DNA from: Planctomycetota bacterium
GTDB taxonomy: Bacteria; Planctomycetota; MHYJ01; WSZJ01
Direction of reading: 5' to 3'
Assembly (NCBI GenBank): GCA_038060895.1
Contig: JBBTCT010000034.1
Coordinates: 56,951 to 120,950, forward strand
Length of the DNA: 64,000 nt
Shown here: positions 900 to 46,020 of the stretch, in pieces
How positions within the stretch are numbered: position 1 is the stretch's first letter
Layout: the number at the start of each line of letters is the position of its first letter
Made by a program: the position numbers and the translations under genes
Notes under the pieces: model-generated
The model's database searches: none
Told to the model about the DNA's origin: nothing
The model's input: only the letters and a program-made list of their open reading frames with translations

Positions 900-2453
900 A
901 TGAACGCGCTTCGCCGGCTCACACTCGCCTCCGCCGTCGCCGTCGCTGTGCTCGCGCCGCTTCCCACATCCGCCTGCCTGGGCGAGTACCGGAGCCTGGA
1001 CTGGATGGTGGGGCACGCCACGCTGATCTTCGTTGGGACGGTGGAATCGGTAGAGAAGGCGCCTTCGGGGCGGGAAGACGCGCGGAGAGGCCCCTCGCAG
1101 GACGGGCCGACAGTGGCGACGGTGAAAATCGTGCGCGTGCTGCATGGCACGGCGCCGGACGCGACGATCCGGCTCCGGTCCGGGCCGGTCGCGTCCTGAG
1201 CACCGGAGGCCATCTACTTCGGTTTCGAAGTCGGTCAGACTTCGATTTTCATCCTGATCGGTTCGACGTCCAGCGGTACGGCAACGCTGTCGCGGGGCGC
1301 CTGCGTGCAGGGCTTGGAAGACCTGGAGGCCTTGCGGTCGCGCATCGTCCGCGCAAAGGCGTGGCGGGCGGAGCACCTCGAGCAACTGCGAAGGACGGAC
1401 CCGAAGCTTTTCGAGGCGGCCGAGGCGCTCAACGCAGAGATGAGGAAGGCAGTAGAAACGGCGCCCTTTCCCGATCCCAGGGATGATGGCTCGTCGTTCG
1501 AGGCTACTCATGAGGCGGTCGAAAAGCTGACGAAGCGCCTCGCCGAAATTGAACCGCAGGTCGCGTTCGAGGCCCTGGCGATGGATTGGCTGGACACGAC
1601 GAAAGGGCACTGGTCCGGTGACGAATACAGTGTTTGGGGAAATGCGGTCAGGGATGCTTTCCGCGACCGCGAGAAAGAAGTAGCGACACTTCAGAAGAAC
1701 GAAGCCGAACGCCTGCTTCTCCGTGCCGGCCTCTCGAAGACCCAGGTCGCGGAGTACATCGCGGCGGTGGACAGCGGCTTCGGAAGATCCCCCGAGTTCC
1801 CCCTTGATCCGCCGAACGGCTACCGACTCGACAAACTTTCGCCGGAGATCGCGACCACGGACTTCATCCTCCGCTGCGAAACGTACGACCGCGGGGCGAT
1901 CTACTTGCTCTACGGCATGTGGGGAGAACGGCTTGCCAAGATCCTCCCCGCGCGCGTCCAGGACCGGATCCCGTCCATGCTCTCCAGCCCGGACGGCGAC
2001 GCGTGGGTCGCGGCGCGTCTGATCGAGGAAGTGAAGGGATTCCACTTCGTCGATGAGGTCCTCCGTCGCCAGGTGGCCGGGGAGAGGCCGGGCGTGTTCC
2101 TCTTCCTCAACGCGGACGACAAGAACTGGAAAACCGATGTCCTCAACGAGATGTTCAAGCGGGCAAGAACCGGGTACTCCCTCTGGGGAAGATCCCGGCT
2201 CTGGGACTCGTTGGGGACAAGCGGGATCGATGACCCCGTGTGCATCGGCGCTGCAATTGCGGATCTCGAGAACGAAGAAAAGGCCGGGAAGCGCACGGAG
2301 GATGAGGAACGCTGGGCCTCCGGGTTTCGCGATTCGCTTCGGCGTTATCTCACCTTCGCCCAGTCCGCCCGAAGCGCACAGGGGGACGCAAAGAAGTCCG
2401 CCGCGGAGTGGAATGAGTGGTTCGAGAAGAATCCGGCTCCGGCGAAAAAGTGA
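900..2453 (+). CDS. Putative exported selenoprotein, 517 aa, with TIMP/NTR-like N-terminal domain; in-frame TGA at 1197-1199 (codon 100)
   Basis: ORFs 873..1199 and 1305..2453 share a frame with a single TGA between them. Readthrough gives RSGPVAS-U-APEAIYFGFEVGQTSIFILIG. Signal peptide ends TSA|C; hairpin at 1225-1245. Confidence 0.7.
1225..1245 (+). promoter_or_regulatory. Candidate bacterial SECIS hairpin
   Basis: TCGAAGTC-GGTCA-GACTTCGA: perfect 8-bp stem, G-starting loop 33 nt after the TGA. An alternative hairpin ACTTCG-GTTT-CGAAGT lies at 1216-1231. Confidence 0.55.
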
Positions 2454-2536
2454 TCGGTCGGGGCGAGGCCAGGACGAAGCGCGGCGTCTTTCACAACCGA
2501 ACCGTCATTGCTTCGGCTGGAAAACGAACCGCGGTT

Positions 2537-2688
2537 GGCTTCACCGCCGACATGGACTACGAGGGCCGGTCGCTCAAGGCCCAGATGCGAAGCGCCAACC
2601 GCGTGAAAGCGCCGTGGGTCGTGATCATCGGCGGGGATGAGCCGTTCGACTCGCTTCGCTCGCTCACTGTGGACTGGCGAAGGGGGTG
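2537..2688 (+). pseudogene. hisS: hisS 3' fragment, copy 1, with 32-nt insertion
   Basis: Translates GFTADMDYEGRSLKAQMRSANRVKAPWVVIIGGDE[insertion]LAKGV, typical of the HisRS anticodon-binding domain. Repeated at 6167 and 8944. Confidence 0.75.
2642..2673. repeat. 32-nt REP-like insertion, copy 1
   Basis: CCGTTCGACTCGCTTCGCTCGCTCACTGTGGA; differs at 2 positions from the copy at 8987-9018. Confidence 0.6.
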
Positions 2689-2763
2689 CTGATGTTGGGC
2701 CGGTGTCGGATACAGTAGTCAGCGACTGGCCGTTCCCCTTCTACACGGTTCTACGCACACACC

Positions 2764-4059
2764 ATGAAAACAATCGGCTTCCTATCCTGCGTCCTCGGCG
2801 TTGCCATGTCGCTCCCGGCATACGCCCAGGGTGCTCCCGTATCAATCCCGATCCGCACAGGAGTGCTTGGCGCCACGGAGCTCGGCTACCAGGGATACGC
2901 CGATGGGATCGAGCATCCCATCGAGGGGCAGAGCTTCGAAGCCTATGGCCACGAAATCACACTCGATCGCAACGGTGCTCAGCCGACCGTGACAGTCGCG
3001 GGCAAGGCCACGAAGATCGCACGATTTCCGTGGATTCTCAAGCTGGGCTCAGGTGGCGAGGCCCGCGCAATCGAGATCGTGAGCCACGGCGAACGCCTGA
3101 TGTGGACCAGCCATTGGGGCGCGACGTTCCAGCTCGACCAGCAGCCGTTCGCCGTCATCGATGCGGACGGCGACGGCGTGCTCTGGGAAATCGGAGAGGA
3201 CGCGATTATCGGTCCCGACAGCTCGACGGCGACCCGCTACACGGGTGGGGCGTGGACCACGAAAGGCGGCTGGACCCTCGCGCCCGATGGCCCCCGGCTC
3301 CGGGCCTCCGCGATCGCGCTGTCATGTCCCCCGGAAATGCACAAGGCCTGGTGCCGATTCAACGTCGAGCGCCAGGCCGCGGGTTGCCAACCGGTCGCCT
3401 GGGACGAGGAGCTCGCGCGCGGTTGCCGCGCCCACGTCGCCTACTTGGCGCGCAACGACGTCCGCGGTCACGACGAAGATCCCAGCAAGCCCGGGTTCAC
3501 CGAGATAGGTCGGACCGCCGCGAAGCAGTCCGTCCTGGGGTATCAATACGCCGACCCGCTCGAGGCGATCATCGAGCAATTTCGCACTGCCTACCACCTC
3601 GAGAATGTCATGAAACCCGGGCTCTTGAGCTCGGCGATGGCGATCCAGGGCACTCACTTCGCCTGCAACACCGAGGGTGGTAAGTCGGAGTCCGTCCAAT
3701 CGGGATCGGTCGCCTGGGTCTGGCCTGCTCACGGCCGCCGCGATGCGTTTCGCGTGTTCAACGCGGGTGGCGAACAACCGATGCCAGTGCCGGGCCACGA
3801 GAAGGATTACCAAATGACCTTGGGGCAGGTCGTGTGCGCCAAGGTGACCCCGGGCAAGTGGGATCTGGTCGTCGAGACCGCCGCGGGCCAGCGCATCGAG
3901 GGCGTGCTGACCTTCCCCGGAAAGGGCATCGCCGGCAAGCCGGACAACGACGAATTGGTGATCCTGGCGCCAGCGGCCTCGCTTCCCGTCGGCATGCTCC
4001 GCGCCACCTTGTCGCGCGACGGGGCGATCGAACGCCGGTGGTGGTTCGCCACGCGTTGA
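2764..4059 (+). CDS. Secreted CAP (SCP-like) domain protein
   Basis: Signal peptide; FNVERQAAGCQPVAWDEELARGCRAHVAYL...GHDEDP...TAYHLENVMKPGL matches a bacterial CAP domain. Confidence 0.8.
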   Translation: MKTIGFLSCVLGVAMSLPAYAQGAPVSIPIRTGVLGATELGYQGYADGIEHPIEGQSFEAYGHEITLDRNGAQPTVTVAGKATKIARFPWILKLGSGGEARAIEIVSHGERLMWTSHWGATFQLDQQPFAVIDADGDGVLWEIGEDAIIGPDSSTATRYTGGAWTTKGGWTLAPDGPRLRASAIALSCPPEMHKAWCRFNVERQAAGCQPVAWDEELARGCRAHVAYLARNDVRGHDEDPSKPGFTEIGRTAAKQSVLGYQYADPLEAIIEQFRTAYHLENVMKPGLLSSAMAIQGTHFACNTEGGKSESVQSGSVAWVWPAHGRRDAFRVFNAGGEQPMPVPGHEKDYQMTLGQVVCAKVTPGKWDLVVETAAGQRIEGVLTFPGKGIAGKPDNDELVILAPAASLPVGMLRATLSRDGAIERRWWFATR

Positions 4060-4219
4060 ACAGCGACGTACAAGAAGCCCCTGTCGAGCACGAAACCATC
4101 CTCTTCCGCATCGTCTACTACGCGTCCTGCGCTTCCTGCTCGTGAAACACCCCGCACCATCCGCTTCCCGCCGCGATACCATTCGCAACGCGTTCGATCC
4201 GGCGTCACAGGGAGGCGGC

Positions 4220-4500
4220 ATGCTCCGGAAGACATGGCTGGCACTTCTCCTCTGCGCGGCCCCGCTCGCGGCCGAGGAGGGCTACGACGCGGGCGACAGC
4301 TGCCCCGACTTTGAGCTCTTCAACACGGACGGCCGCGCCGTCCGGCTCTCCGAATTCCGCGGGCGCGTCGTGGTGCTTCACCTGTTCGCCACGTGGTGAG
4401 GCGGCTGCCAGGCGGGCGGGGCGCCGATCGCGCAGTTCGCGCGGGAGGTGAAGGACGACGGGCGGGTGGCGTTCGTCGAGATCGCGGGCGGGGAGACCCC
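4220..4500 (+). pseudogene. AhpC/TSA-TlpA redoxin with UxxC motif (TGA 4397-4399); apparently truncated, frame continues into the next gene
   Basis: GGAGG RBS, signal peptide, CPDFELFNTDGRAVRLSEFRGRVVVLHLFATW-U-GGC. Redoxin-like sequence stops after VAFVEIAGGETP (~4500). Confidence 0.65.
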
Positions 4501-4518
4501 TTCGTGGTTCGACGCGCC

Positions 4519-4527
4519 TGATATACT
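4519..4527 (+). promoter_or_regulatory. Extended -10 element before ATG 4535
   Basis: TG-A-TATACT, 7 nt upstream of ATG, no Shine-Dalgarno. Confidence 0.55.
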
Positions 4528-4534
4528 TGCACCC

Positions 4535-4849
4535 ATGAAAGCGAATGGCTCCACGCACAAGTCGTCGCCGGCGGCCGAAGTGGCCCGGCTGCGGCGGCTG
4601 ATCGAGCGAGTTGAGAAGAACCTGAGTGCCAAAATCGCACACCTTGAAGAGAAGCTCGAGGCTGGCGCGCGGGGCGGCGCTTCTGCACGGCTCCGCGAAC
4701 GCAACGAGCTACGGGCGCGGGGCGGCGTGGCGCGCCTCCAGTCGGACCTGCGAACGCAGTACGAGATGGGCATCATCGATCGACAGGGCCGCCGGGTCCG
4801 CACGGGCTGGCCGGACAAGAAGCTTGAGCGCGGCTCCGACGTGGTGTGA
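4535..4849 (+). CDS. Small basic helical protein, probable antitoxin partner of the zeta-like gene
   Basis: ATG behind an extended -10; stop overlaps the GTG of the next gene (GTGA). Confidence 0.55.
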   Translation: MKANGSTHKSSPAAEVARLRRLIERVEKNLSAKIAHLEEKLEAGARGGASARLRERNELRARGGVARLQSDLRTQYEMGIIDRQGRRVRTGWPDKKLERGSDVV

Positions 4850-5484
4850 GCGCTTCAGCTCAAAAGCGGCCGCCGGTCATGGACCTCGTGGCGGGACCCC
4901 AGGGGAGCGGCAAATCCACGTTCTTCCCCGTCAGGGAGAGCGGCGTTGCGGCGTTCAACGTCGACGAACACCGCAAGAGCCTGAATCGCGGATCCTCGGA
5001 GAACATTCCCGAACACGTGCTGCGGAGAGCCCTCGCGGACTACGAGGCGTTCATCGAGGGGCACATCCGGGCGAAAGAGAGCTTCTCAATTGAAGTCACC
5101 CTGGGGAAAGACATCACGTTCCAGCAGGCGCGAAAAGCCAAGCGCGCGGGATTCAGCGTGGAAATGACGTTCGTCGCCGCAGAGTTACAGGACTGCCTTG
5201 CGCGCGTAGCCAAACGACTGGAGGCCGGCGGGCACGGAGTTCCGCCCGAGGTCATCACGGCCACGCACGAGGCCAGCATGAAAAACCTGCCCCGCGCCCT
5301 TGCGCAATTCGACGCCGTGGTGGTCTACGAAAATGCCGGGCTCGCGGGGCCGGAAATCGATCCCGCTTCCCTGTTCCCTCGCCTGGTCCTTGAGGCGCAG
5401 TCGGGCCGGGTCACGTTTGTCGCCGAGGGGCCGCCGGAATGGCTGCGGAAGGCATTGGCGGGCAGCCGCTTCGAATTGAAGTAG
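4846..5484 (+). CDS. Zeta-toxin family P-loop protein
   Basis: VAGPQGSGKST Walker A, NVDE, SFSIEVTL, RVAKRLEAGGHGVP motifs. Confidence 0.85.
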   Translation: MSASAQKRPPVMDLVAGPQGSGKSTFFPVRESGVAAFNVDEHRKSLNRGSSENIPEHVLRRALADYEAFIEGHIRAKESFSIEVTLGKDITFQQARKAKRAGFSVEMTFVAAELQDCLARVAKRLEAGGHGVPPEVITATHEASMKNLPRALAQFDAVVVYENAGLAGPEIDPASLFPRLVLEAQSGRVTFVAEGPPEWLRKALAGSRFELK

Positions 5485-5511
5485 ACGCCCGTTCGCGCTT
5501 AACTTGAGCGC

Positions 5512-6162
5512 ATGCCTAAACTCGTGGTCCGCAGTTTCGCCATCTCCCTGGACGGCTTCAGCGCCGCTCCCGGGCAGAGCCAGAAGGAGCCCTTCGGGAA
5601 GAACGGCCTGAGGCTCATGGGGTGGGCCTTCGCCACCAAACACATGACCACCCTGTTCGGCGGCACGGGCGGCGCCGAGGGCATGGACAACGACTTCCTG
5701 GCCCGATCGGACGAGAACATCGGCGCCAGCATCATGGGCCGCCACATGTTCGGCCCGCCCCCCGACGCCAAGGACAAGGAGTCCTGGAAGGGCTGGTGGG
5801 GCGAAAACCCTCCCTACCACCACCCCGTCTTCGTGCTGACCCACGAAAAGAAAGCCCCCCTCCCGATGGAAGGCGGCACTCGCTTCACCTTCGTGAACGA
5901 CGGCATCGAATCCGCCCTGAAACAGGCCCTCGCCGCCGCCCAAGGCAAAGACGTCCGCCTGGCCGGCGGCGCGGCCACCGTCCGCCAATACCTGAAAGCC
6001 GGCCTCATCGACGAGCTCCACCTGGTGCAGGTGCCCCTCCTGTTCGGCCAGGGGGAACGCATCTTTGAAGACCTGGGGGGCGTGGAGAGCCTGTACGAGT
6101 GCGTGGAGTTCACGCCTTCCAGGGCGGTGTCGCACTTGCGGATCGTCAGGAAGGCCAGGTAG
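5512..6162 (+). CDS. Dihydrofolate reductase family (RibD C-terminal-like) protein
   Basis: ISLDGF, IMGRHMFG, PPYHHPVFVLTH, AGGAATVRQYLKAGLIDELHLVQVPLLFGQG. Confidence 0.9.
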   Translation: MPKLVVRSFAISLDGFSAAPGQSQKEPFGKNGLRLMGWAFATKHMTTLFGGTGGAEGMDNDFLARSDENIGASIMGRHMFGPPPDAKDKESWKGWWGENPPYHHPVFVLTHEKKAPLPMEGGTRFTFVNDGIESALKQALAAAQGKDVRLAGGAATVRQYLKAGLIDELHLVQVPLLFGQGERIFEDLGGVESLYECVEFTPSRAVSHLRIVRKAR

Positions 6163-6166
6163 GGAA

Positions 6167-6249
6167 TCACCGCCGACATGGATTACGAGGGAAGATCGCT
6201 CACGGCCCGGATGCGAAACGCCAACCGCGTGAAGGCGCCGTGGGTCGTG
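6167..6249 (+). pseudogene. hisS: hisS 3' fragment, copy 2
   Basis: TADMDYEGRSLTARMRNANRVKAPWVV, starting just after the upstream TAG; several synonymous differences from copy 1. Confidence 0.75.
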
Positions 6250-6281
6250 GAGCCGCGCCGGCGCGGGACATCACGGGCCGC

Positions 6282-6310
6282 TTGACTTCACAAAGCCACA
6301 CAACTATGAT
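6282..6310 (+). promoter_or_regulatory. Sigma70-type promoter of the toxin-antitoxin operon
   Basis: TTGACT-17 nt-TATGAT, followed by GGAGG RBS and ATG 6336. Confidence 0.7.
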
Positions 6311-6335
6311 ATTTGCACTACTTGGAGGACTTCCC

Positions 6336-6608
6336 ATGATCCAGCATGTCTCCCCGCTGCACCTCCGCCAGAAGCTCGGCGACGTCCTGAACCGCGTCGC
6401 GCTTCGGCAGGACGAGTACGTCATCGAGCGCAAGGGGCATCCGCTCGCAGCGCTGGTGTCAGTCGAGAAGATGCGATCCCTCGTGGAGGCGGCGCGGCTG
6501 CACCTGCTGGCGGCGCTTCCGGCGCGCCGCACGAAACTCCCGCAGGCCGCGGCGGACGCGCTTGCGGACGAGGCCAAGCACCGGTCGCGTCCGAGGCGGA
6601 GGAAGTAG
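6336..6608 (+). CDS. Phd/YefM family antitoxin
   Basis: LRQKLGDVLNRVALRQDEYVIERKGHPLAALVSVE; directly upstream of a PIN gene. Confidence 0.85.
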   Translation: MIQHVSPLHLRQKLGDVLNRVALRQDEYVIERKGHPLAALVSVEKMRSLVEAARLHLLAALPARRTKLPQAAADALADEAKHRSRPRRRK

Positions 6609-6611
6609 CCC

Positions 6612-7049: not shown

Positions 7050-7211
7050 TTCGCAGGCCCCCGCCACATGCGGAGTTTTGAAACCGCCCGCGCCGCGCGA
7101 CGGTAGAAACCGGCACGCCCGACACGGGGGCCCCATGAAACTCATCGCCGCTCGAACGCGGGCACCGACGTCACGTCGCCCCTCTTCAGGAAGGAGTCCA
7201 GGTCGGCGACG

Positions 7212-14233: not shown

Positions 14234-14255
14234 TGCGAGCGGGGATTCCAGGGGC

Positions 14256-35524: not shown

Positions 35525-37738
35525 ATGAACGTCTCCCCCGACCTCGTGACGAAAGCCCAGCGCGGCGATCGCGCTTCGCTGGAAGCTCTCGTCGCGTCGG
35601 TCCAGGCCGACGTCTGGCGGCTCATGATCTCGCGGCTCGGCCGCGAGGAGGACGCCGCCGACGCGACCCAGGAGACGTTCCGGCAGGCGCTCGATTCCCT
35701 CGCCTCCCTACGCGATCCCTCCGCGTTCGCCGGCTGGCTCTGCCGGATCGCCCTGAACAAGGCCCACGACCTGAAACTGGCCCGCGACTCCGCGGCCCGG
35801 GACGTGAGAGCCCTCGGGGCACGCGCTTCCATGGAAACCAGCGAGGAGGCATCCATGGTGGCGGAGAAAGCTGAAGCGTGCACGGCGGTGCGGGCGGCGG
35901 TGAAGGGACTGGACGAGGAGTTGAGGACGACGGTGGAGCTGCGGTACGAGCACGATTTGTCCTACGCGCAAATCGCGGAAGCGCTGGCGGTGCCGGAGGG
36001 GACGGTGGCGCGGAGGCTGCACACGGCGCACGAGCGGCTGCGGAAGGCGCTGGCGGGGGCGGGAGTGGTGATGGCGCTGGGAATGCTGGAGCGGGAGCTG
36101 GCCGCGGCGCCGCGGGTGGAGATGCCGGGGAGCGTGGCACGGCGGCTGGGCACGATGGCGCGGGGGCGGGGAGCGGCCGGCCCGGCCGTGACGCGCGGCG
36201 GCCGTGCGCGGAAATGGAGTGCCGTGGCGGCGCTCCTGCTGGCGGTCGGGGTGTTCTTCCTGCTGAGATCGCGCTTCAACCGCTCCGGCTCGTCCGAAGG
36301 GACGCCGGTCGCGTCCGCCCCGACGCCAGGCGTGGCGGACGGGGCGCCCGCGAAGACGGAGGAACCCCGTCCTCCGCAGGTTGCGCCGCCGGACGCTCCC
36401 GCGACGCCCGCCGCGACAACCGCGACACTTCACGGCAAGGTCACCGTCGGGCGCGGCGGCCCCGGTTTCGAGGGAGCGCTCCTCCTGTTCGAACGCGTCG
36501 AGGGGAAAAACGCGTGGAGGACGGTCGCGCGGACGACATCGGACGCGCAGGGCGAGTACCGCGTCGTGGTGCCCCCGGGGGACTATTTCGTCAGCATGAG
36601 CGCCCGCGGATATCCCGGAGTCATGGTCGACGCGACGCTCGGTGACACGCTCGCGGGCCTGGGATTCCGCTTCAACTCCGGTCTGCCCGGTCCCGCGATC
36701 CCCGTGGCCGCGGGGGCCGAGCTGACGCTCGACATCCCGCTCGAAGTGCGCCTCGCGCCGGCCATCGAGGTTCGCGGCCGCATCCTCGACGAACGCGGCT
36801 ACCCGATCGCGGGGGCCACGATCCGTCCGCTCACGCAGCAGATGGGAGAGCGGGACCTCGAGGGGATCGCTACCTTCGGCGTCAACTACATGATCGAGGG
36901 CGAGCCCGAATACACCGGCATCACCGTCGGCGAGGACGGGCGCTTCAGCTTCCCCTGCGTTTTCCCGCGCGGCAATTTCTTCGTCGGCGTGAAGGCGAAG
37001 GGATACCCGGAAATCGAGAAGCGCATTCACCTGGCGAAGCAGGACGTGGAGATCGACTTCGTGCTGCAGAAAGGACTGTGCGTCGCGGGCCGGGTGGTGG
37101 ACTCGAAGGGCCTTCCGGTCGCCGGGGCGCGCATTTTCGGCGTCGGGCAGCCTTATCAGGCGGGGAGGATGCTGCGGAACGACGGCCGCCCGCCCGCGGC
37201 GGACAAGGTGCAGGACACCGGCTGCACGACGGATGCGGACGGGAAATTCGAGGCGGAAGGCCTGGACTCGCGACTGAAGGCCATCGCGGTCCTCGCCGAC
37301 GGGCACGGATGGGCGATGGCGGCTGTCCCCGCTGACCCGGCGCAGCCGATCGAGATCGCGCTCCCGGGGGCGGACCTGTTCCTCTCGGGCGTGGTGCGCG
37401 ACCCCGCGGGGGCCCCGGTGGAGGGCGCGATCGTGCAGGTCACCCAGATCTGGCTCGCCGACGGCGACGTGACAGCCTCGCTGATCTGGCCGTGCGACCT
37501 CCACCTGATTTCGCGGACGGTAAGCGGCCAGGCGCAATTCACCGGCGACGTCGAAAACGGAAAGCTCCTCGCGGCCCGCACCGGACCCGACGGGCGCTTC
37601 GCCATCCCCTCCCTCCCCGCCGGACGGCTCCGTGTCGCGGTGGGCGCCGAAGGATTCGAGGCGGAAGCGCAGACGCTGGAGCTGCCCGCGACCGCGAGCT
37701 TCTCGCTCACGCCGAAGAAGGTGCCTGTCCCGAAGTAA
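35525..37738 (+). CDS. ECF sigma-70 factor fused to a TM helix and carboxypeptidase-regulatory-like repeats
   Basis: Region 2 DAADATQETF...FAGWLCRIA; region 4 LSYAQIAEALAVPEGTVARRL; GRVVDSKGLPVAGA-type repeats. Confidence 0.85.
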   Translation: MNVSPDLVTKAQRGDRASLEALVASVQADVWRLMISRLGREEDAADATQETFRQALDSLASLRDPSAFAGWLCRIALNKAHDLKLARDSAARDVRALGARASMETSEEASMVAEKAEACTAVRAAVKGLDEELRTTVELRYEHDLSYAQIAEALAVPEGTVARRLHTAHERLRKALAGAGVVMALGMLERELAAAPRVEMPGSVARRLGTMARGRGAAGPAVTRGGRARKWSAVAALLLAVGVFFLLRSRFNRSGSSEGTPVASAPTPGVADGAPAKTEEPRPPQVAPPDAPATPAATTATLHGKVTVGRGGPGFEGALLLFERVEGKNAWRTVARTTSDAQGEYRVVVPPGDYFVSMSARGYPGVMVDATLGDTLAGLGFRFNSGLPGPAIPVAAGAELTLDIPLEVRLAPAIEVRGRILDERGYPIAGATIRPLTQQMGERDLEGIATFGVNYMIEGEPEYTGITVGEDGRFSFPCVFPRGNFFVGVKAKGYPEIEKRIHLAKQDVEIDFVLQKGLCVAGRVVDSKGLPVAGARIFGVGQPYQAGRMLRNDGRPPAADKVQDTGCTTDADGKFEAEGLDSRLKAIAVLADGHGWAMAAVPADPAQPIEIALPGADLFLSGVVRDPAGAPVEGAIVQVTQIWLADGDVTASLIWPCDLHLISRTVSGQAQFTGDVENGKLLAARTGPDGRFAIPSLPAGRLRVAVGAEGFEAEAQTLELPATASFSLTPKKVPVPK

Positions 37739-37812
37739 GCCCTTGCGGGGTCGGAGCCGCAGCCGCCGTTTTCGTTTGTTCCGCCCCCGCGCCCCGGGCT
37801 ACCCTGCCCCCC

Positions 37813-38586
37813 ATGCGTCCGACACTTCTCGCCATCGCCTGCCTCGCCGCCGCTTCCAGCGTCCTCGCGGAAACTCCCCAGCCCGCGAAAGGTGGAATCG
37901 CGTGGGAAGCGAGCTTCGACCAGGCGAAGACGAAGGCCGCCGGGGAGGGCAAGCTGCTCTTCGTCGAGTTCCTGACCGACGGCTGAAAAACGTGCGTCGA
38001 GATGGAGACGGACACCTGGCCGCGCGACGAAGTGAAGACGTTCCTGGCCGACAAGGTGTGCGTCAAGGTCAACCCCGGGAAGGGTCCTGACCAGAAGAAG
38101 CGGATGGACGACTTCGGCGTGAAGACAGTGCCGGCGATGATCCTGATTTCGCCCGAGGGCCAGGAGCTGGTCCGCGCCGCCGGCAAGCCGGCGCCCGGCG
38201 CGTTCACCTCGTACTTCGTGAACCAGCGCTGGAACGACATGATCGCCACGGAGAAGGCGCAGGACTGGAAGGCGACCGCCGGGCATGCGTTCATCCTCAG
38301 GACCTGGTTCCCCGGCACCGAGGCCGCGAAACGCGCCGACGGCATCGTCGCTTCGCACGGCGAGCAGGCGGAATTCAAGGCGGCGCTAGAAGCGGCGAAG
38401 ATCGCGAACGAGCGCGCGGTCCTGCTCGGCAAGGCCAACCTGCTGCTCCAGGACAAGAAGAAGGCCGAGGCGATCGACGCGTTCAAGGCGGTCATCGCCA
38501 CGCATCCCGACAGCAAGGAAGCCGAGGCGGCGAAGGCGGCTTTGAAGAAGCTGGGGGTGAAGATGGACGCGCCTGGAAAGAAGTAG
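37813..38586 (+). CDS. Exported thioredoxin-fold selenoprotein (UxxC) with C-terminal TPR-like helices, 257 aa; TGA 37984-37986
   Basis: Signal peptide; IAWEASFDQAKTKAAGEGKLLFVEFLTDG-U-KTCVEMETDTW, with the TGA at the first Cys position of CxxC. Confidence 0.85.
37992..38015 (+). promoter_or_regulatory. Candidate SECIS hairpin (weak)
   Basis: GTG-CGTC-GAGATGGA-GACG-GA-CAC bulged stem-loop just after the TGA. Confidence 0.35.
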
Positions 38587-39138: not shown

Positions 39139-39166
39139 TTGACCAAAACAAAATAGCCTTTATTAT
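39139..39166 (+). promoter_or_regulatory. Sigma70-type promoter
   Basis: TTGACC-16 nt-TATTAT in an AT-rich stretch just before ATG 39175. Confidence 0.5.
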
Positions 39167-39174
39167 GGTCTGTC

Positions 39175-40371
39175 ATGTTCCAACGTCGCCTCTACGAAGG
39201 ACTTCTGAACGCCCACTTCCGCACCCATCGTCAGATGGCGTTCGTCACCGGTCCGCGCCAGGTGGGAAAGACGACAACCTGCCGCTCGCTCGCGGATGTC
39301 TACCTGAGCTGGGACGACGCGAACCAGCGACAGCACGTCCTGGGCGGACCCGACGTGATCGCGAAGCTCCTTGATCTCGAGAAGCCGCGCGAACGGCCGC
39401 CGGTCGTGGTGTTCGACGAACTGCACAAGCACCGGCGGTGGCGCGACTTCCTCAAGGGGTTCTTCGACGTCCACGGCGAGAAGGCGCGCGTGCTCGTGAC
39501 GGGAAGCTCGCGGCTCGGGCTGCTGCGGCGCGGCGACAGCCTCCTTGGGCGGTACTTCCATTACCGGATGCACCCGCTCACGATCGGGGAGCTGATCGAC
39601 CCTTCCCCGCCCGACAAAACGCTGGTCCGGCCACCGCGGGCGCTTCCCGATCCAGAGATCGAAGCGCTTTGGACGCACGGCGGATTTCCGGAGCCGTTCC
39701 TGAAGCGTGACGCCGAATTCTCGACGCTGTGGCGGCGGCAGCGGCGCGAGCTGGTGCTGCGGGAGGACGCGAGGGAACTGACGCGGGTCGCGGACCTCGG
39801 GACGCTCGAAGTCCTGGGGAACATGCTGCACGATCGCTCCTCGGGACAGCTCGTCCTCAGCAACCTCGCCTCCGACCTCGGCGTCTCCGCGCCGACCGCG
39901 AAGGCGTGGGTCGACACGCTCGCGGCGCTCTACGTCGGATTCCTCGTCCGGCCGTGGTTCCGGAACGTCACGAAGTCGCTTCGCAAGGAGCCCAAGTGGT
40001 ACCTGCGCGACTGGTCGGGGATCGCGGACGACGGCGCGCGGGCCGAGACGTTCGTGGCCTGCCACCTGCTGAAGGCGGTGGAGACGTGGGAGGACCGCGG
40101 GCTCGGCGAATTCGAGTTGAGGTATCTGCGGGACAAGGAGAAGCGCGAAGTGGACTTCGTCGTCGTGCGCGACCGGAAGCCGTGGTTCATGGTCGAAGTG
40201 AAGCTCTCGGACGAAGCTCTCTCCCCCGCACTGTCGCATTTCCAGAAGGAGACCGGCGCAGCGCACGCCTTCCAGGTCGTGGTCAACGCGCCCTTCGTCG
40301 CGACGGATCCCTTTGCCCGCAAGGACCCGATCGTGCTGCCGGCGCGGACGCTGCTGTCGCAGCTTCCGTGA
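39175..40371 (+). CDS. AAA_14 ATPase with DUF4143 domain
   Basis: TGPRQVGKTT, VFDELHK, VTGSS, GGFPEP, REVDFVV...VEVK. Confidence 0.9.
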   Translation: MFQRRLYEGLLNAHFRTHRQMAFVTGPRQVGKTTTCRSLADVYLSWDDANQRQHVLGGPDVIAKLLDLEKPRERPPVVVFDELHKHRRWRDFLKGFFDVHGEKARVLVTGSSRLGLLRRGDSLLGRYFHYRMHPLTIGELIDPSPPDKTLVRPPRALPDPEIEALWTHGGFPEPFLKRDAEFSTLWRRQRRELVLREDARELTRVADLGTLEVLGNMLHDRSSGQLVLSNLASDLGVSAPTAKAWVDTLAALYVGFLVRPWFRNVTKSLRKEPKWYLRDWSGIADDGARAETFVACHLLKAVETWEDRGLGEFELRYLRDKEKREVDFVVVRDRKPWFMVEVKLSDEALSPALSHFQKETGAAHAFQVVVNAPFVATDPFARKDPIVLPARTLLSQLP

Positions 40372-40455
40372 GGAGGTGCCGCGTGAATGTCGACGCACCC
40401 GGGAAAGGACAGGCTGGAACGGGTGGATGAGATGGCCCTGATACTATCCCCTGCC

Positions 40456-41073
40456 ATGAAGGATGCGCGCCTGCCTGCTGCCGGTGGAAGCAGGGGTTTC
40501 GGGAGTCGCATGAGCCCGCCCCCCGAGACGGCCCTGATGCTCCGCGAACTCCGCGTCGAGGACGAAGCCTCGTTCAAGGAAGCCGTCGCTGAATTCCGGG
40601 CCTCGCAGCCGGAGTGGGGCTTCGCGTTCCACTTTGACGACACTGCGGACTTCCGCAACTACGTCAGGCGCGTCAACGGCTGGCCGCGTGGAGAGGACCT
40701 GCCGGAGCGGTTCGTGCCAAACACGTTCCTGGTCGGCGTCCTGCAGGGCAAAGTCGTCGGGCGGCTCTCGCTCCGGCACGAGCTGAACGACTTCCTTCTG
40801 CGCATCGGCGGGCACATCGGGTACGGCGTCGTTCCGTCCTGCAGGCGCCGCGGGCACGCGCGCGCCATGCTCCGGCTGTCTCTTCCCGTGGCCCGCTCCC
40901 TCGGGATCGGACGCGTGCTCCTGACGTGCGACGACGACAATCCGGGGTCGATCCGGGTCATTGAGTCCTGCGGAGGCGTGCTGGAGAACGTCCTCATGGA
41001 AGCGGGAATGTCGGTGGGAAAGCGGCGGTACTGGATCGACCTTGCGAAGCCCGCCATCGAGGTGTCGCGGTAA
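40456..41073 (+). CDS. GNAT family acetyltransferase
   Basis: GRLSLRHELNDFL...GGHIGYGVVPSCRRRGHA...TCDDDNPGSIRVIE. Start could be 40456 or 40510. Confidence 0.85.
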   Translation: MKDARLPAAGGSRGFGSRMSPPPETALMLRELRVEDEASFKEAVAEFRASQPEWGFAFHFDDTADFRNYVRRVNGWPRGEDLPERFVPNTFLVGVLQGKVVGRLSLRHELNDFLLRIGGHIGYGVVPSCRRRGHARAMLRLSLPVARSLGIGRVLLTCDDDNPGSIRVIESCGGVLENVLMEAGMSVGKRRYWIDLAKPAIEVSR

Positions 41074-41156
41074 GTTCGGGTGAGCCGGTCGGCGACAGGG
41101 CGGATTGTCGGGAGAATGCCCGGCCACCGCGCCTTTCTCGCAAGGAGGAGACAGCT

Positions 41157-41519
41157 TTGAGTACTGCAGCAGAGCGGGAAGCCGGGACCAGGGCCCTGTG
41201 GCGTATCAGGATGTTCCACACCCTGGCGTGGGCCGTGTTTGCCTCGGCGATCGTGGCGATTCCCATCGTCGTGCTGCTGGGCAGTCTGCGCACGGCTGCC
41301 TGGCTGAGCGCCCTCGTCTGGATCGAGGTCGTAATTCTGCTGGTCAACCGGATGCGCTGCCCCCTCACCGGCGTCGCCGCCCGGTACACGTCCGATCGCG
41401 CGGACAACTTCGACATCTTCCTTCCGCTCTGGCTTGCACGGCACAACAAGCTCCTCTTCGGATGCCTGTTCGTGATCGGCGAAGCGATCCTGGCGTGGAA
41501 ATTGGGATGCGCGTCGTGA
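41157..41519 (+). CDS. Small conserved membrane protein
   Basis: AGGAGG RBS before TTG; CPLTGVAARYT...NFDIFLPLWLA. Confidence 0.7.
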   Translation: MSTAAEREAGTRALWRIRMFHTLAWAVFASAIVAIPIVVLLGSLRTAAWLSALVWIEVVILLVNRMRCPLTGVAARYTSDRADNFDIFLPLWLARHNKLLFGCLFVIGEAILAWKLGCAS

Positions 41520-41593
41520 GCGCGGAATCCTCCTACGTCTTTCGCCCCGCGTTGCTGCACGACGCGGCCTGTCAACTCCAGATCCGCGGCGAC
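41516..41593 (+). pseudogene. Remnant 5' end of the YLFRHALLRDAAY TPR family
   Basis: VSAESSYVFRPALLHDAACQLQIRGD versus MHAETAYLFRHALLRDAAYQLQLPGD. Confidence 0.65.
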
Positions 41594-41708
41594 GGGGTCC
41601 CGAATCGTCGGGGGAGCACGCTCCACGTGCGGCGGCGCCTCGAAGCGCAGCGGCCGGAGGAACGCGATATGATGAAACTCCACTGGCGTTTGCGAGAGGG
41701 CGAAAGCG

Positions 41709-42086
41709 ATGACGTCGCTTGAAGACTGGCCCGGGGCGTACGCGCGGGCGCTCGCTTCGCAGCGCTGGAGCGAGGTGGATCCGCTGGTACACGAGGACGT
41801 CTGCGCGACGTTTTCGGACGGCTCGCGGCACGAGGGCCGCGCGGCGGTCCGCGCCGCGTTCGAACGCAACTTCGCCGCGATCCAGGACGAGCGATACGCG
41901 ATCTCGAATCTTCGATGGATCCGGAGAGGGGTGGACCACGCCCTCTACGTCTTTGACTTCGCGTGGTCCGGCCTGATCGGCGCTCGCCCGGCGAGCGGCG
42001 GGGGGCGAGGGACGACCGCGCTCGTGCGCGATGGCGGCCGCTGGCTCATGATCGCGGAACATCTCGGGCCGAAACCGACCGAATGA
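41709..42086 (+). CDS. NTF2/SnoaL-like protein
   Basis: HEGRAAVRAAFERNF...GRGT...WLMIAEHLG. Confidence 0.8.
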   Translation: MTSLEDWPGAYARALASQRWSEVDPLVHEDVCATFSDGSRHEGRAAVRAAFERNFAAIQDERYAISNLRWIRRGVDHALYVFDFAWSGLIGARPASGGGRGTTALVRDGGRWLMIAEHLGPKPTE

Positions 42087-42994
42087 TCCCCCGCTCAACT
42101 CTGTCGACCCACGGCTACGCCGTTCACGAAGGACTCTTTTCCGCGAACGAGATCGGCGCTCTCAGCACCGCGCTGGACGCCGTCACGAGCGGCGTGCAGC
42201 AGCTCCCAGAGGATCTGCGCGCCCTCCTGACCCTCGAGCGCGACCTGGAACCGAGGCAGCGCGGCGAGATCACGCCCGAACAGGCGGGCGACAACGTCTT
42301 CATCATTGGGGAACTCCAGCGCTTCGCGCCGGCGTGCGAAGCGCTCATCACCCATCCGAAGATCCTCGAGACGCTCGAAGCGCTCTTCGAGTCGCAGGAC
42401 TTTGCGTTTCACTTCATGAACGCAACGATGAAGTCCGCGCTCGTCGGCAGCAAGATCGGGTGGCATCGCGACTGGCCGAACAAGTATCTCTGCGGCACGA
42501 CCTCGAATCAGGTGCGGCTCATGCTCTGTCTCGACGGAATGCGCCGGGGCGAGGGGGCGCTGGACATCGTGCGCGGCACGCACGCGATCAGCGACGAGGA
42601 AGCCAGGACCGCTCGACTGCGCGGCCGAGTGTGGCCCGCCGAGGAGATCGACACGATAGAGTGCGCCCCCGGCGCACTCGTCGCCCTCCACGCGAAGCTC
42701 GTCCACGGCAGCGGCCCCAACCGCTCCCCCCGCCCGCGCCGCAACATCCTTATGCAGTGGGGCGGCCCCGGTTGCGAACTCGTCGGCGAAGCGCGCGAGA
42801 TGCATACGGGGCGGCCTGCAGAGAGACTACGACACGGCACGAGCGAAGGAAACGCTCGCAAAGACCCTCGCGCATATCAAGCCGTGACTGCGGCGGAGCA
42901 GGAACAGGGCGTGAGTTCCAATTCACGACCCCCATCGACGCTCCCAACGACGCTGTGTAAGCTGGACGGAGTCCCGCTTCCAAGGGAGCCCCTC
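42083..42994 (+). CDS. Phytanoyl-CoA dioxygenase (PhyH) family protein; no stop before the next gene
   Basis: GWHRDW (HxD) and LVHGSGPNRSPRPRR; frame runs on into the SRPBCC gene. Confidence 0.75.
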
Positions 42995-43441
42995 ATGCCC
43001 ACAGGCACGGTCCGGTTGCATCGCGTCCTGAAAACCACGCCCGCGAAGCTCTACAGAGCCTTCCTTGACGCCGACGCGATGGCGAAGTGGTTGCCGCCGT
43101 ACGGGTTCACGTGCAAGGTTCACCATCTGGAGCCGAAGGTCGGTGGCACGTTCCGCATGTCGTTCAGAAACTTCGGTTCGGGTACAGGCAACGCGTTCGG
43201 CGGCGAGTACCTCGAGCTGGTGCCGAACGAGCGCCTTCGCTACACGGACCGCTTCGAGGACAAAAACCTTCCGGGCACGCTGACCGTCACGGTCACGCTT
43301 CGCCCGGTGGCCTGCGGCACCGAGCTGACTGTCGTGCAGGAAGGAATCCCGGAGGTGATCCCGGTCGAGATGTGCTACCTCGGCTGGCAAGAATCGCTGG
43401 CGCAGCTCGCGACCCTGGTCGAGCCCGAGATTCCCGGGTAG
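42995..43441 (+). CDS. SRPBCC/AHSA1 domain protein
   Basis: Own RBS AAGGGAG; VRLHRVL...KWLPPYGF...CYLGWQESL. Confidence 0.85.
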   Translation: MPTGTVRLHRVLKTTPAKLYRAFLDADAMAKWLPPYGFTCKVHHLEPKVGGTFRMSFRNFGSGTGNAFGGEYLELVPNERLRYTDRFEDKNLPGTLTVTVTLRPVACGTELTVVQEGIPEVIPVEMCYLGWQESLAQLATLVEPEIPG

Positions 43442-43475
43442 CGAGGGGATGCGAGCCGGGAAATGCTCCGCGGAA

Positions 43476-43515
43476 CCGAAGTCCGGGAGCAGAACCCGCG
43501 TACCTCTTTCGCCAC
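43476..43515 (+). pseudogene. Very short remnant of the TPR-family 5' end
   Basis: GAAGTCC followed by AEPAYLFRH; matches the GAAGTCC-ATG...AETAYLFRH context at 8747. Confidence 0.45.
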
Positions 43516-43522
43516 TCCCCCG

Positions 43523-44182
43523 TTACTTCGGCTGCGGCACCACCCTCAAGTACGGCTTCACCGTCTTCCAGCCGCCCGGGTACTTCTGCTTCGCCTCTTC
43601 GTCCGTCACGGCGGGCACGATGATCACGTCGTCGCCCTGCTTCCAGTTCACGGGGGTCGCGACCTTGTGCTTCGCGGTGAGCTGCATCGAGTCGAGGACG
43701 CGCAGGACTTCGTCGAAGTTCCGGCCCGTGCTCATCGGGTAACTGAGCATCAGCTTGATCTTCTTGTCCGGCCCGACCACGAACACCGTCCGCACCGTCG
43801 CGTTGGTCGCCGCCGTCCTGCCGTCGCAGGTCGTCCCGGCGTCCGCCGGCAGCATGTCCCACGCCTTGGCGACCTTCAACTCCGGGTCGCCGATCATCGG
43901 GTAGTCCACCATCGAGCCCTGCGTCTCCTCGATGTCCTTCTTCCACCTCTCGTGGCTCGCAACCGGGTCCACCGAAAGCCCGATCACCTTCGCGTTCCGC
44001 TTCGCGAACTCCGGCGCCAGCTTCGCCATGTATCCGAGCTCAGTCGTGCACACGGGGGTGAAGTCCTTCGGGTGCGAGAAGAGGATCCCCCAGCCGTCGC
44101 CAAGCCATTTGTGGAACTCGATCGGGCCCTGGGTGGTCTCGGCGGTGAAGTTCGGGGCGTCGTCGTTGATGCGCAGGCTCAT
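43523..44182 (-). CDS. 1-Cys peroxiredoxin (Prx6 family)
   Basis: FSHPKDFTPVCTTEL, YPMSTGRNFDE, VATPVNW. Confidence 0.95.
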   Translation of the reverse strand: MSLRINDDAPNFTAETTQGPIEFHKWLGDGWGILFSHPKDFTPVCTTELGYMAKLAPEFAKRNAKVIGLSVDPVASHERWKKDIEETQGSMVDYPMIGDPELKVAKAWDMLPADAGTTCDGRTAATNATVRTVFVVGPDKKIKLMLSYPMSTGRNFDEVLRVLDSMQLTAKHKVATPVNWKQGDDVIIVPAVTDEEAKQKYPGGWKTVKPYLRVVPQPK

Positions 44183-44322
44183 GGCTGGTCTCCTTGATGG
44201 GGCGGCGCGGGTTGCGCGTGAAGGGTCACGCTTGTAACCGAAAGCGGGGTTCGCTTCCACGACTTGTACAGGAAGAAGTCCGGCTTCGGCAGCGCCAAGG
44301 ACCCGGCGGTATGATCATCGCC

Positions 44323-44982
44323 ATGTCACACGCCGCCGGACATCGCAAGCCTGGTCACACGCATCGCGGCGGCGGACCTGCCCACCACGGCCACTCCTTC
44401 GCGGACGTCGAGAACTGGGTCGCCCGCTTCGAGGGCCCGGAGCGCGACGCCTGGCAGAAGCCCGAAGAGGTCGTGCGCGCCCTCGGGCTCGCGCCGGCGG
44501 CCCGCGTCGCCGAGATCGGCGCCGGCACGGGCTACTTCGCGGTGCGGCTGGCGCGGGCCGTTCCCCGCGGCCAGGTCTGGGGCGTCGACCTGGAGCCCAA
44601 CATGGTGCGGCACCTGGAAGCGCGCGCGGCGCGGGAGGGATTGGCCAACCTGACCGCCGCGTTGGCGAGCGCCGAGGACCCGCGCCTGCCCGAACCGGTG
44701 GACGTCCTGCTGGTGGCCAACACCTACCACCACCTTGAAGCGCGTCCGGCGTACTTCGCCCGGGTCGCGACCGCCCTTGCGCCCGGCGGGCGGCTCGTCA
44801 TCATCGACTTCAGGAAGGGCGACCTGCCCGTCGGTCCGCCCGACGAAATGAAGCTCGCCCCGGAGGTCGTTCGATCCGAACTCGAGTTGTCGGGCCTGGT
44901 TCAGACCGCCGAGGAATCGTTTCTGCCGCACCAGTACTTCCTCGTATTCCGGAAGCGCTCGCCGCGGACGGCTTCTCCGTAA
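44323..44982 (+). CDS. Class I SAM-dependent methyltransferase
   Basis: RDAWQKPEEV, VAEIGAGTGYF, NTYHH, LPHQYFLVF. Confidence 0.9.
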   Translation: MSHAAGHRKPGHTHRGGGPAHHGHSFADVENWVARFEGPERDAWQKPEEVVRALGLAPAARVAEIGAGTGYFAVRLARAVPRGQVWGVDLEPNMVRHLEARAAREGLANLTAALASAEDPRLPEPVDVLLVANTYHHLEARPAYFARVATALAPGGRLVIIDFRKGDLPVGPPDEMKLAPEVVRSELELSGLVQTAEESFLPHQYFLVFRKRSPRTASP

Positions 44983-45074
44983 TCACTGGGCGGCATTTGC
45001 AAATTTCGAATCCGCGATCGCGGGCATAGCGTAACGGGTGAATAAAGACCCGATCTCCTGGTGAGGCTCACCCA

Positions 45075-45206
45075 ATGAAGAAGCTCCCGCTTCCGATCCT
45101 GCTGGCCCTCGCCGGATGCGCGAACGACGCCCAGGTCGCGCAGACGCGGCCCCCAACGTCCAAATATTGTAAATTTCGTAAGATTGGGGGGCTCCGGTCG
45201 ATATGA
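45075..45206 (+). pseudogene. Short lipoprotein-like ORF (43 aa), probably a 5' remnant
   Basis: MKKLPLPILLALAGC lipobox, then runs into an AT-rich promoter-like region. Confidence 0.4.
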
Positions 45207-45261
45207 TGCCGGGGCGTTCAACGACATTATCCGATAGCGGAAAGTCCCTAAGGAGAAATCA

Positions 45262-46020
45262 ATGAGGACGTCTCAGCTCGGGTACCTGGGGTTCCTGGCG
45301 GTGCTGCTGGTTGCCAGCGCACCCCGTCCTGCCGAAGCGGGCTGATGCCGCAAGGCGCGTCCACGTCTGACGTGGTACGAGCCTATTGAAACAAGCCTCC
45401 GTGAAGAGGTTTCAGCGACGGGCCCCGGTGCGACAGAAATCCCCGAGGAGATTCGCAACGAGTTCGGGCTGACGTACTGGGAAAAAGACAACCAGAAGCC
45501 GGGGCTCATCTATTTCTACTGGTCCGATTCTTCGGACCCGCGCGGCAAGAAGAGCCAGGCCTGGAATCGGGATCTCTTTGACACCGAGGACGTGGCCCGC
45601 GCTTCGAAGCACTTTCTCTGCCTCAAGGTCGACGGCGCGAGGCAGGATGCGGCGCTCCTGAAGAAGCGCGGCCTGGATCCGGCGAAATTGCCGGCGCTCG
45701 TCGTGACCAGCCCCACCGGTAAATTTGTCTGCATCCTTCCCGAGGTGAAGAGCAACGTGGCGCTGAAGGACGCCCTCGAGGAGGCCGTGGCAAAGCACTT
45801 TCCGGCGCTCTGGAAGTCGTACGATCAGGTTTACCTGGAACTCGAGAAGCTGCTGGATGCGGCCCGCGAGGACTACAAGAAGAACAACTACGAGGCCGCC
45901 CTCGAGAAATTGACCAAGGTCATCGAGAATCCGGTGCGCACTTCCCTGATCGAGCGCGCGGAGGAGTTGCAGGATGTCGTCCGGACCAAGCTGGACAACC
46001 TGGACCGGAAGCAGAAGTAA
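45262..46020 (+). CDS. Putative exported selenoprotein, 252 aa, mature N-terminus Gly-Sec-Cys, thioredoxin-like fold plus helical tail; TGA 45343-45345
   Basis: AAGGAG RBS, signal peptide ending AEA, then GGC-TGA-TGC. Frame stays open to TAA 46020 and joins ORF 45592..46020. Confidence 0.8.
45354..45383 (+). promoter_or_regulatory. Candidate bacterial SECIS hairpin
   Basis: GGC-G-CGT-CCACGT-CTG-ACGTGG-T-ACG-A-GCC: long stem with a bulged U, apex about 21 nt after the TGA. Confidence 0.65.

Follow-up and report, generated by a model that had tools for sequence, protein, structure and literature searches.

In-frame TGA codons of exported genes probably belong to a very large selenoproteome of uncultured Planctomycetia

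When several genes for apparently exported proteins are each interrupted by an in-frame TGA within a short stretch of bacterial DNA, are these codons stops, defects or sites of selenocysteine (Sec) insertion? This question is raised by a window of 64,000 nucleotides (nt), i.e. the whole stretch of DNA that was analysed, which corresponds to positions 56,951 to 120,950 of contig C34 (GenBank JBBTCT010000034.1) in assembly GCA_038060895.1 of a Planctomycetota bacterium (5.42 Mb, 47 contigs, 66% G+C). With a probability that we put at roughly 0.85, its four TGAs are ordinary bacterial Sec codons, drawn from the very large selenoproteome of a Planctomycetia lineage that has not been cultured. This assessment rests on the codons, their conservation, their pairing with Cys in homologues, the machinery, and a TGA-specific excess, all of which we observed. 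The prototype of bacterial genes decoded through SelB and a selenocysteine insertion sequence (SECIS) is Escherichia coli fdhF. By the same route, Sec-tRNA(Sec) would be brought by SelB to UGA codons that have a SECIS hairpin 3' inside the coding sequence, and the resulting selenoproteome would be dominated by expanded, mostly exported thioredoxin-fold families.

Four in-frame TGA codons and their genes

The preliminary description of this DNA placed the TGAs at 1197, 4397, 37984, and 45343, and we found them exactly there, all on the plus strand. Site 1 (TGA 1197-1199) is U109 of the frame 873-2453, in the context P-V-A-S-U-A-P; site 2 (4397-4399) is U86 of the frame 4142-4849 (W-U-G-G-C); site 3 (37984-37986) is U165 of the frame 37492-38586 (G-U-K-T-C); and site 4 (45343-45345) is U28 of the frame 45262-46020 (A-G-U-C). 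As proposed earlier, these contexts are Cys-like, with UxxC at sites 2 and 3, UC at site 4, and a TIMP-like Cys position at site 1, and all four frames have signal-peptide-like N termini as judged by eye (MNALRRLTLASAVAVAVLAPLPTSA, MLRKTWLALLLCAAPLAA, MRPTLLAIACLAAASSVLA, and MRTSQLGYLGFLAVLLVASA). The frames are open and coding-like on both sides of each TGA. Domains or folds continue across U in genes 1, 3, and 4, whereas gene 2 contains half a domain only. In the same alignment column, homologues have TGA and Cys for site 1, Cys and TGA paralogues exist for sites 2 and 3, and only TGA was seen for site 4. The curated selenoprotein models of NCBIfam gave no match for genes 1 and 4 and only sub-threshold scores for genes 2 and 3, namely 25 against a cut-off of 300 (WAxxUGC_long), 33 against 805 (seleno_TsoB), and 16 against 300 (trx7_PDZ_seleno). 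Of the four cases originally put forward, three (sites 1, 3, and 4) are convincing, whereas site 2 is a gene fragment. The hairpin said to follow each TGA can be drawn at all four sites, but its folding energy is clear only at site 4 and marginal at site 1. The functions proposed below for the four products are predictions from sequence.

Gene 1 (900..2453, plus strand) is predicted to encode a signal peptide, a TIMP/NTR-like beta module with Sec109, and an ARM/HEAT-like repeat domain made up entirely of helices. Searches of Pfam and NCBIfam returned no family for this gene. In 41 genomes (the source genome and 40 relatives), we found six matching loci, its own included, in four genomes. When these were aligned, the TGA column was shared by five of the six (27-46% identity) and occupied by a Cys in the remaining one ('GPVRSC'). 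The Cys directly after the signal peptide, 74 residues before the Sec, is invariant. A candidate SECIS hairpin (1225..1245, plus strand), with an 8-bp stem and the loop GGUCA, starts 28 nt after the U of the UGA. Its folding energy sets it only marginally apart (z -1.84), with 8 of 200 shuffles equalling it. It recurs in four of the five TGA-bearing homologues with an invariant GGUCA loop and two compensatory changes in the stem (GAAGUC/GACUUC, GAGGUC/GACCUC, and CAGGUC/GACCUG), and this candidate is supported by covariation instead of folding energy. No in-frame start occurs for 35 codons 3' of the TGA. The earlier prediction that gene callers would fragment such genes is borne out, the public protein collection containing gene 1 only as two C-terminal pieces of 382 amino acids (aa), one derived from the gene itself and the other 87% identical to it.

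An AlphaFold2 (AF2) model of gene 1, based on the six-sequence alignment, has a mean predicted local distance difference test score (pLDDT) of 78.1 and a predicted template modeling (TM) score (pTM) of 0.74. It comprises a beta module (residues ∼43-147) followed by helical repeats; pLDDT drops under 50 for residues 22-40 and 69-77. Foldseek ranks TIMP-2, agrin NtA, and PCOLCE NTR highest (probability 1.0, E 3e-3 to 1e-2). VIA-align returned complement C345C (Z 8.8), NtA (Z 8.3-8.6), and TIMP-2 (Z 8.2) over 106-119 residues, Z values near 8 being only moderately above the level of unrelated models. The root mean square deviation (rmsd) from NtA is 2.4-2.6 Å over 106-112 of ∼128 residues, and VIA-align pairs residues 35..162 of the model with residues 1..122 of the TIMP-2 chain. 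All the top structural matches are NTR modules, and they extend over the entire domain; as modelled, the N-terminal domain of gene 1 has an OB-type NTR fold across the whole module. These matches back the reading of site 1 as a TIMP-like Cys. When this domain was searched by sequence against PDB chains, nothing was found at E up to 10. As with TIMP Cys1, the alignments begin at the Cys that follows the signal peptide; by spacing, not by residue alignment, the Sec presumably occupies the position of the partner of TIMP Cys1 (Cys1-Cys70 bond). By analogy, its likely partner is the invariant N-terminal Cys of the mature protein, and the module may inhibit metalloproteases. Unlike TIMP/NTR proteins, gene 1 is bacterial, is fused to a ∼380-aa helical repeat domain, and has no sequence similarity to them. 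We consider its product to be an exported selenoprotein of a new family.

Gene 3 (37813..38586, plus strand) would encode an exported protein with a Thioredoxin_7 (DsbD-gamma-like) domain bearing the G-U-K-T-C motif and a TPR-like helical tail. Residues 137-221, which span U165, match the complete Thioredoxin_7 profile (positions 1-83 of 83) with 42.3 bits against a cut-off of 27, U-K-T-C lying at the CxxC position as expected of a family member, and weak TPR matches follow. All five orthologues from same-genus genomes (80-90% identity) keep the one TGA. Among the 50 best rows of a gene 3 search, TGA is the only in-frame stop in 34 and stands beside TAG/TAA in 4; 12 rows are free of stops, and none has TAG/TAA alone. 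When gene 3 was aligned with its own-genome paralogues, U faced Cys four times and TGA seven times. Those relatives with the motif U-K-(T/A)-C that bear names are Planctomycetia or Planctomycetota metagenome-assembled genomes (MAGs). A weak hairpin follows site 3 (37992..38013, plus strand), a stem pair of which is broken in one orthologue. The stretch AUGGAGACGGACACCUGGCCGCG after the TGA is invariant in six distinct orthologous sequences, synonymous positions included; despite this unusual nucleotide invariance, folding and orthologue comparison revealed no convincing hairpin after site 3. As in the DsbD C-terminal domain/Thioredoxin_7 and in YbbN-type thioredoxins with TPR, a thioredoxin fold precedes helical repeats, and UxxC takes the CxxC position. 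Unlike DsbD, the products of genes 3 and 4 are predicted to be soluble exported proteins, not part of the DsbD membrane protein. The gene 3 product may act in redox reactions in the periplasm or after export, through a UxxC centre in its thioredoxin fold.

Gene 4 (45262..46020, plus strand) is predicted to encode a signal peptide, a G-U-C dyad in a flexible tail, a DsbD-gamma-like thioredoxin fold, and a helical tail. This would be the gene 3 architecture minus CxxC, with the U-C dyad displaced to the flexible N-terminal tail. An AAGGAG lies 7 nt 5' of the ATG, and the TGA is codon 28, right after the signal peptide. Both orthologues found (82 and 78% identity) keep the TGA though the signal peptide diverges, and no Cys form of the site was found among gene 4 homologues. 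Neither Pfam nor NCBIfam contains a family that matches gene 4. The best structural match of its AF2 model (pLDDT 79.6, with the dyad in a low-confidence tail) is the DsbD C-terminal domain (E 3e-4, TM 0.68, rmsd 2.2 Å, 104 columns). The CxxC position reads W-S-D-S-S, and gene 4 is therefore thioredoxin-like in fold only; it differs from the DsbD C-terminal domain/Thioredoxin_7 in the loss of CxxC and in the placement of U-C in the N-terminal tail. A candidate SECIS hairpin (45353..45384, plus strand, -26.1 kcal/mol) starts 10 nt after the UGA. By folding energy (z -3.15, equalled by 1 of 200 shuffles), no hairpin at the other three sites is as strong. Both orthologues retain this hairpin, but their sequences are too close for covariation to show.

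Gene 2 (4220..4500, plus strand) appears to be the 5' fragment of a gene for a TlpA/ResA-like thiol:disulfide oxidoreductase, consisting of the signal peptide and the first half of the thioredoxin fold. AhpC-TSA/Redoxin scores above its cut-off (39 bits), but only profile positions 2-59 of 124 are covered, and scores against the NCBIfam ResA, TlpA, and WAxxUGC models are far below their cut-offs. A 368-nt segment (window 4133-4500) is duplicated with 97.3% identity at C34:53209-53576, 7.9 kb upstream and outside the window. It holds the promoter-proximal/upstream region, the signal peptide, the W-U-G-G-C Sec codon, and a hairpin (4422..4450, plus strand) with a GC stem and the loop CAGUU that is part of the minimum free energy fold. 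Both copies end at the same point, after 'GGETP', and the rest of the fold is missing. The open frame continues to 4849 into an apparently separate small coiled-coil gene with a start near 'MKANGS'. This distal part is 72% identical to a small open reading frame (ORF) of one relative (genome G006) that has no TlpA part and probably starts at 'MKANGS'. Gene 2 may be a duplicated, truncated remnant of a TlpA-like selenoprotein gene, and site 2 a genuine Sec-type context in a gene fragment whose function is doubtful.

Machinery and genome-wide sites

Among the checks named in the preliminary description were locating the Sec machinery and scanning the genome for TGA/Cys pairs; a near-complete genome devoid of tRNA-Sec or selB would have spoken against its reading. 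The machinery is all present. An Rfam search places tRNA-Sec at C4:13533-13624 (71.7 bits against a cut-off of 47), and selA (C4, 24942-26297, 541 bits), selB (344 bits), and selD (364 bits) all score above their family cut-offs, selD itself carrying one TGA. A second tRNA-SeC called by aragorn (C1:472898-472990) was rejected as a false positive that is not tRNA-like and is unlisted by the Rfam search. Contig C4, which carries selA, also has a thioredoxin-like gene with a Sec codon ('FWSDD-U-GAC', TGA at C4:13148, minus strand) ∼400 nt from the tRNA-Sec gene.

The scan took in all in-frame stops flanked on both sides by 12 or more open codons, and read-through peptides were compared by BLAST with the genome's own ORFs and with each other. 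Stops aligned to a Cys or to another in-frame stop were TGA in 68 cases, TAG in 33, and TAA in 7, the TAG/TAA cases being almost all single pairs of repeat copies. Pfam/NCBIfam domain checks were made on 41 representative recoded references out of 275 candidate sites. Curation yielded 63 Sec-type TGA sites (about 61-63) on 20 contigs of this 86.5%-complete genome, 53 supported by paralogues and 10 by Pfam, NCBIfam, or relatives. In 27 of the 63, the TGA aligns to Cys in an uninterrupted paralogue. The claim of a selenoprotein-rich genome is upheld by these numbers; extrapolating its total from the window overestimates it, as the window, with four sites where 0.74 per 64 kb are expected, has ∼5 times the mean site density of the genome. 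Mixture estimates, which add 40-88 sites or give ∼80-110 in total, are weak, rough upper guesses on which we do not rely.

About 36 of the curated sites are in thioredoxin-fold proteins. The largest group is a Trx_7/DsbH-like cluster (26 sites plus 3 singles), followed by TlpA/Redoxin-like proteins (7 sites, two of which are the site-2 fragments) and FG-GAP proteins of ∼1150 aa (7 sites). Smaller FG-GAP, alpha-2-macroglobulin (A2M)-like, and deiodinase-like proteins have 2 sites each, AhpD/CMD 2 plus 1 single, and BNR/sortilin-like proteins 2 plus 1 weak single. Thioredoxin, MsrA, ThiF/MoeB, FdhA, SelD, DUF1223, gene 1, and gene 4 account for 1 site each. In representatives, a Pfam or NCBIfam domain extends across U for Trx_7, Redoxin/AhpC, CMD, deiodinase, MsrA, ThiF, A2M TED, FG-GAP, DUF1223, thioredoxin, FdhA, and SelD.

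Two sites in TPR proteins (C15 minus, 'QPTE-U-MGRD'; C5 plus, 'DECQD-U-VRK') were dropped, having no spanning Pfam domain and a junk-like downstream frame. An AhpC/TSA-like gene on C15 has a Sec-type TGA at 157801 that is spanned by the domain and, 122 codons on, a second in-frame TGA at 158170 ('TFAFG-U-PIPR') followed by 88 open codons; it may encode a two-Sec protein, or the second TGA may be a real stop. Further TGA sites with good flanks and Cys-rich contexts, which have neither Pfam family nor paralogue, were left uncounted. These are at minus-strand scan offsets 128133 and 101983 of C1, C2 minus 159609, C9 326077, and C35 minus 16206 ('SMSMC-U-GGTPKD', 'KRYG-U-GVGMPD', 'CPGGS-U-KGGGG', 'KEGD-U-GGSC', and 'FPCG-U-HGEK').

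A hairpin with a GG/GU loop 14-32 nt downstream was found at 33 of 55 paralogue-supported sites, as against 61 of 1143 TAG/TAA controls. The bias to exported proteins noted earlier also holds, 40 of the 63 Sec genes being positive in a test for an N-terminal hydrophobic segment vs 1744 of 4009 background ORFs (p 0.002), by a heuristic so crude that it flags 43.5% of the background; most of the set may be exported.

Alternative explanations

Several observations weigh against reading these TGAs as Sec codons. The actual insertion of selenium at the UGAs is something that we infer from gene sequences. The assembly is a MAG in 47 contigs with 86.5% completeness and 1.5% contamination. The figure of 63 comes from our own curation, it includes the two site-2 fragments, and 26 paralogue-supported sites are backed solely by TGA-to-TGA alignment. 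Unfiltered counts from a 5th-order Markov coding model, which replaced a simple codon log-odds filter that passed many off-frame R/G/E/D-rich frames, show no TGA excess (174 TGA vs 175 TAG plus 88 TAA); the excess is visible only after removing sites with a nearby start or a short downstream frame. Within the window, the 70 nt after site 2 (z -0.01) and the hairpin of site 3 (z -0.67) fold no better than shuffles. Only two copies of the site-2 segment, and no full-length parent of gene 2, were found in the assembly; being truncated, duplicated, and without such a parent, site 2 is possibly a pseudogene. Conservation of gene 4 is seen in close orthologues only, and distant homologues are without the N-terminal segment, so that there is no Sec/Cys pair for site 4.

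Could the four sites be real and the genome count inflated, the true selenoproteome being of ordinary size (under ∼30)? The pipeline is home-made, the 26 sites just mentioned have no Cys paralogue, tandem duplicates can support each other, and the statistical extrapolation to 80-110 adds little weight. On the other hand, 27 sites do have Cys paralogues, domains span U in every thioredoxin-fold representative tested, and the two largest families with no Cys paralogue keep the TGA in relatives at 29-38% identity. We regard an inflated count as unlikely.

Relatives bear equally on the possibility that the TGAs are pseudogene mutations or sequencing/assembly errors in a MAG, as the truncated duplicate at site 2 and an incomplete, 47-contig assembly might suggest. 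The ∼1150-aa FG-GAP proteins, which match no NCBIfam family, are encoded by seven paralogues with one TGA each in 'APDY-U-THFWRQV' (C36 38552, 44030, 47398, and 50835, in tandem on the plus strand; C36 20001; C24 200004; C30 16101). A hairpin, GGCGGC-AGGUC-GCCGCC, lies 9 nt after the TGA, with one compensatory variant. Exactly one TGA is present in 60 of the 63 listed matches to this family (29-100% identity), TAG/TAA in none, and the TGA matches come from 12 of 31 genomes searched. In the A2M-like proteins of ∼1600-1900 aa (TGA at C12 5475 and, on the minus strand, at C21 65299; loci L111 and L207), U takes the place of the thioester Cys of the CxEQ motif ('LPHG-U-FEQS' vs 'YPYGCVEQT' in a Cys paralogue) and the Pfam TED domain spans the TGA; in relatives, 31 rows have one TGA and 15 have none. 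TGA-bearing Trx_7 paralogues occur in all seven congeners and in order- and class-level relatives. The presence of FG-GAP, A2M, and Trx_7 TGAs in relatives means that the expansion is not peculiar to this assembly, and these putative Sec families extend over the genus and into parts of its order and class. If the interruptions arose from random nonsense mutations or errors, TAG and TAA should occur beside TGA, and no alignment with catalytic Cys residues would be expected. Instead, they are TGA-specific, and assemblies made independently from other species have the TGA in the same column even where the proteins are only 27-30% identical. Decay or error is thus a very improbable general explanation.

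A third possibility is that the TGAs are ordinary stops and that each 'gene' consists of two adjacent genes in the same frame. Such neighbours are common: coding-flanked TAG/TAA sites are as numerous as TGA sites, most having a start within a few codons, and the distal part of the site 2 frame resembles a separate small gene. The absence of a TGA excess in the raw counts is explained by the dominance of these adjacent same-frame genes, and on inspection many TAG/TAA 'interruptions' with no nearby start simply mark the end of a gene, beyond which a short AT-rich stretch stays open. With a strict filter (at least 60 downstream codons, score above 0.1, no start within 8 codons), 41 TGA remain vs 8 TAG plus 6 TAA (binomial p 4e-6 against stop usage). 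The preliminary description would have been undermined by TAA/TAG interruptions as frequent as TGA, which is what the raw counts show; after strict filtering, in contrast, they are much rarer. For sites 1, 3, and 4, two adjacent genes are already contradicted by single domains or folds that cross the TGA, by homologues with Cys in the TGA column, by the missing restart in gene 1, and, at site 4, by a signal peptide upstream of the TGA and the mature domain downstream. As an account of the four sites, adjacent genes are highly improbable.

A changed genetic code, with TGA read as Trp, Gly, or Cys everywhere, is extremely improbable: although TGA use among the stops of 1463 long ORFs with high G+C at third codon positions (635 TGA, 579 TAG, 249 TAA) is below what we would expect at 66% G+C, TGA still ends 43% of them, as befits the normal stop described earlier, in-frame TGAs align to Cys and not to Trp or Gly, TGG-Trp codons adjoin U in W-U motifs, the Sec pathway is complete, and the hairpin feature is enriched after the sites. 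That TAG is nearly as frequent as TGA in so G+C-rich a genome may or may not be linked to heavy UGA recoding.

Known selenoproteomes and significance

In the prevailing view, bacteria with the most Sec are anaerobes (Desulfobacterota, Synergistota, Clostridia), which use it mostly in cytoplasmic redox/energy enzymes. Like known SelB/SECIS genes, those described here combine an in-frame UGA, a candidate coding-sequence hairpin nearby with a G/U apical loop, tRNA-Sec, SelA, SelB, and SelD, with putative Sec in place of a redox Cys, and no difference in mechanism is evident; at sites 2 and 3, however, the hairpin is poorly defined. The mechanism is known, whereas the scale, the phylum, the exported bias, and several of the families are new.

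As for scale, the sections on selenoprotein-rich bacteria of one 2026 review report at least 57 selenoproteins in the O. algarvensis Delta 1 symbiont and 63 predicted in a Methylomirabilota MAG, and name the richest phyla as anaerobic (PMC13188914). Table 2 of BSepDB lists 63, 57, 56, 56, and 54 for Desulfobacterota and UBA8248, the 63 belonging to the O. algarvensis Delta 1 symbiont (PMC13326102), and a passage on deep-Sep gives 46 (PMC12013277). Peng et al. (2016), in the part relevant here, define selenoprotein-rich as at least 6 genes and name three rich phyla (PMC5029168). Going by these parts of the sources, about sixty Sec genes are on par with the largest bacterial sets on record (57 to 63, in other phyla), and Planctomycetota are not named there among enriched phyla. 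In a limited literature collection, no selenoprotein-rich planctomycete was described in the titles or abstract openings found, and searches for Sec at the alpha-2-macroglobulin thioester gave only unrelated papers. A word search of the review text (PMC13188914) did not find 'FG-GAP', 'macroglobulin', 'DUF1223', or 'BNR'. What this genome shares with selenoprotein-rich bacteria is dozens of Sec genes, among them thioredoxin-fold, AhpD-like, deiodinase-like, MsrA, FdhA, and SelD. It differs in its phylum and, as far as the portions cited above go, in being dominated by expanded, apparently exported Trx_7/DsbD-gamma-like paralogues, not by anaerobic-metabolism enzymes.

We also put forward a bolder combined proposal, for which we would offer slightly less than even odds: that this genus has the largest bacterial selenoproteome yet (at least 63, perhaps 80-110), mainly secreted and unlike those of the anaerobic record holders, and that it includes undescribed chemistry. 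The latter would comprise a TIMP-like module closed by a Cys-Sec pair (gene 1), A2M-like proteins in which the thioester Cys is replaced by Sec, and a ∼1150-aa FG-GAP family in which the Sec is invariant and of which each same-genus genome searched has 3 to 10 copies.

If true, these findings would add a new selenoprotein-rich phylum with an extracytoplasmic, selenium-based redox system. Standard annotation would miss a sizeable share of these proteomes, since it splits or truncates every Sec gene. The new families would have Sec in place of a Cys with a non-redox structural or covalent-capture role, as in the TIMP-like module and the A2M thioester.

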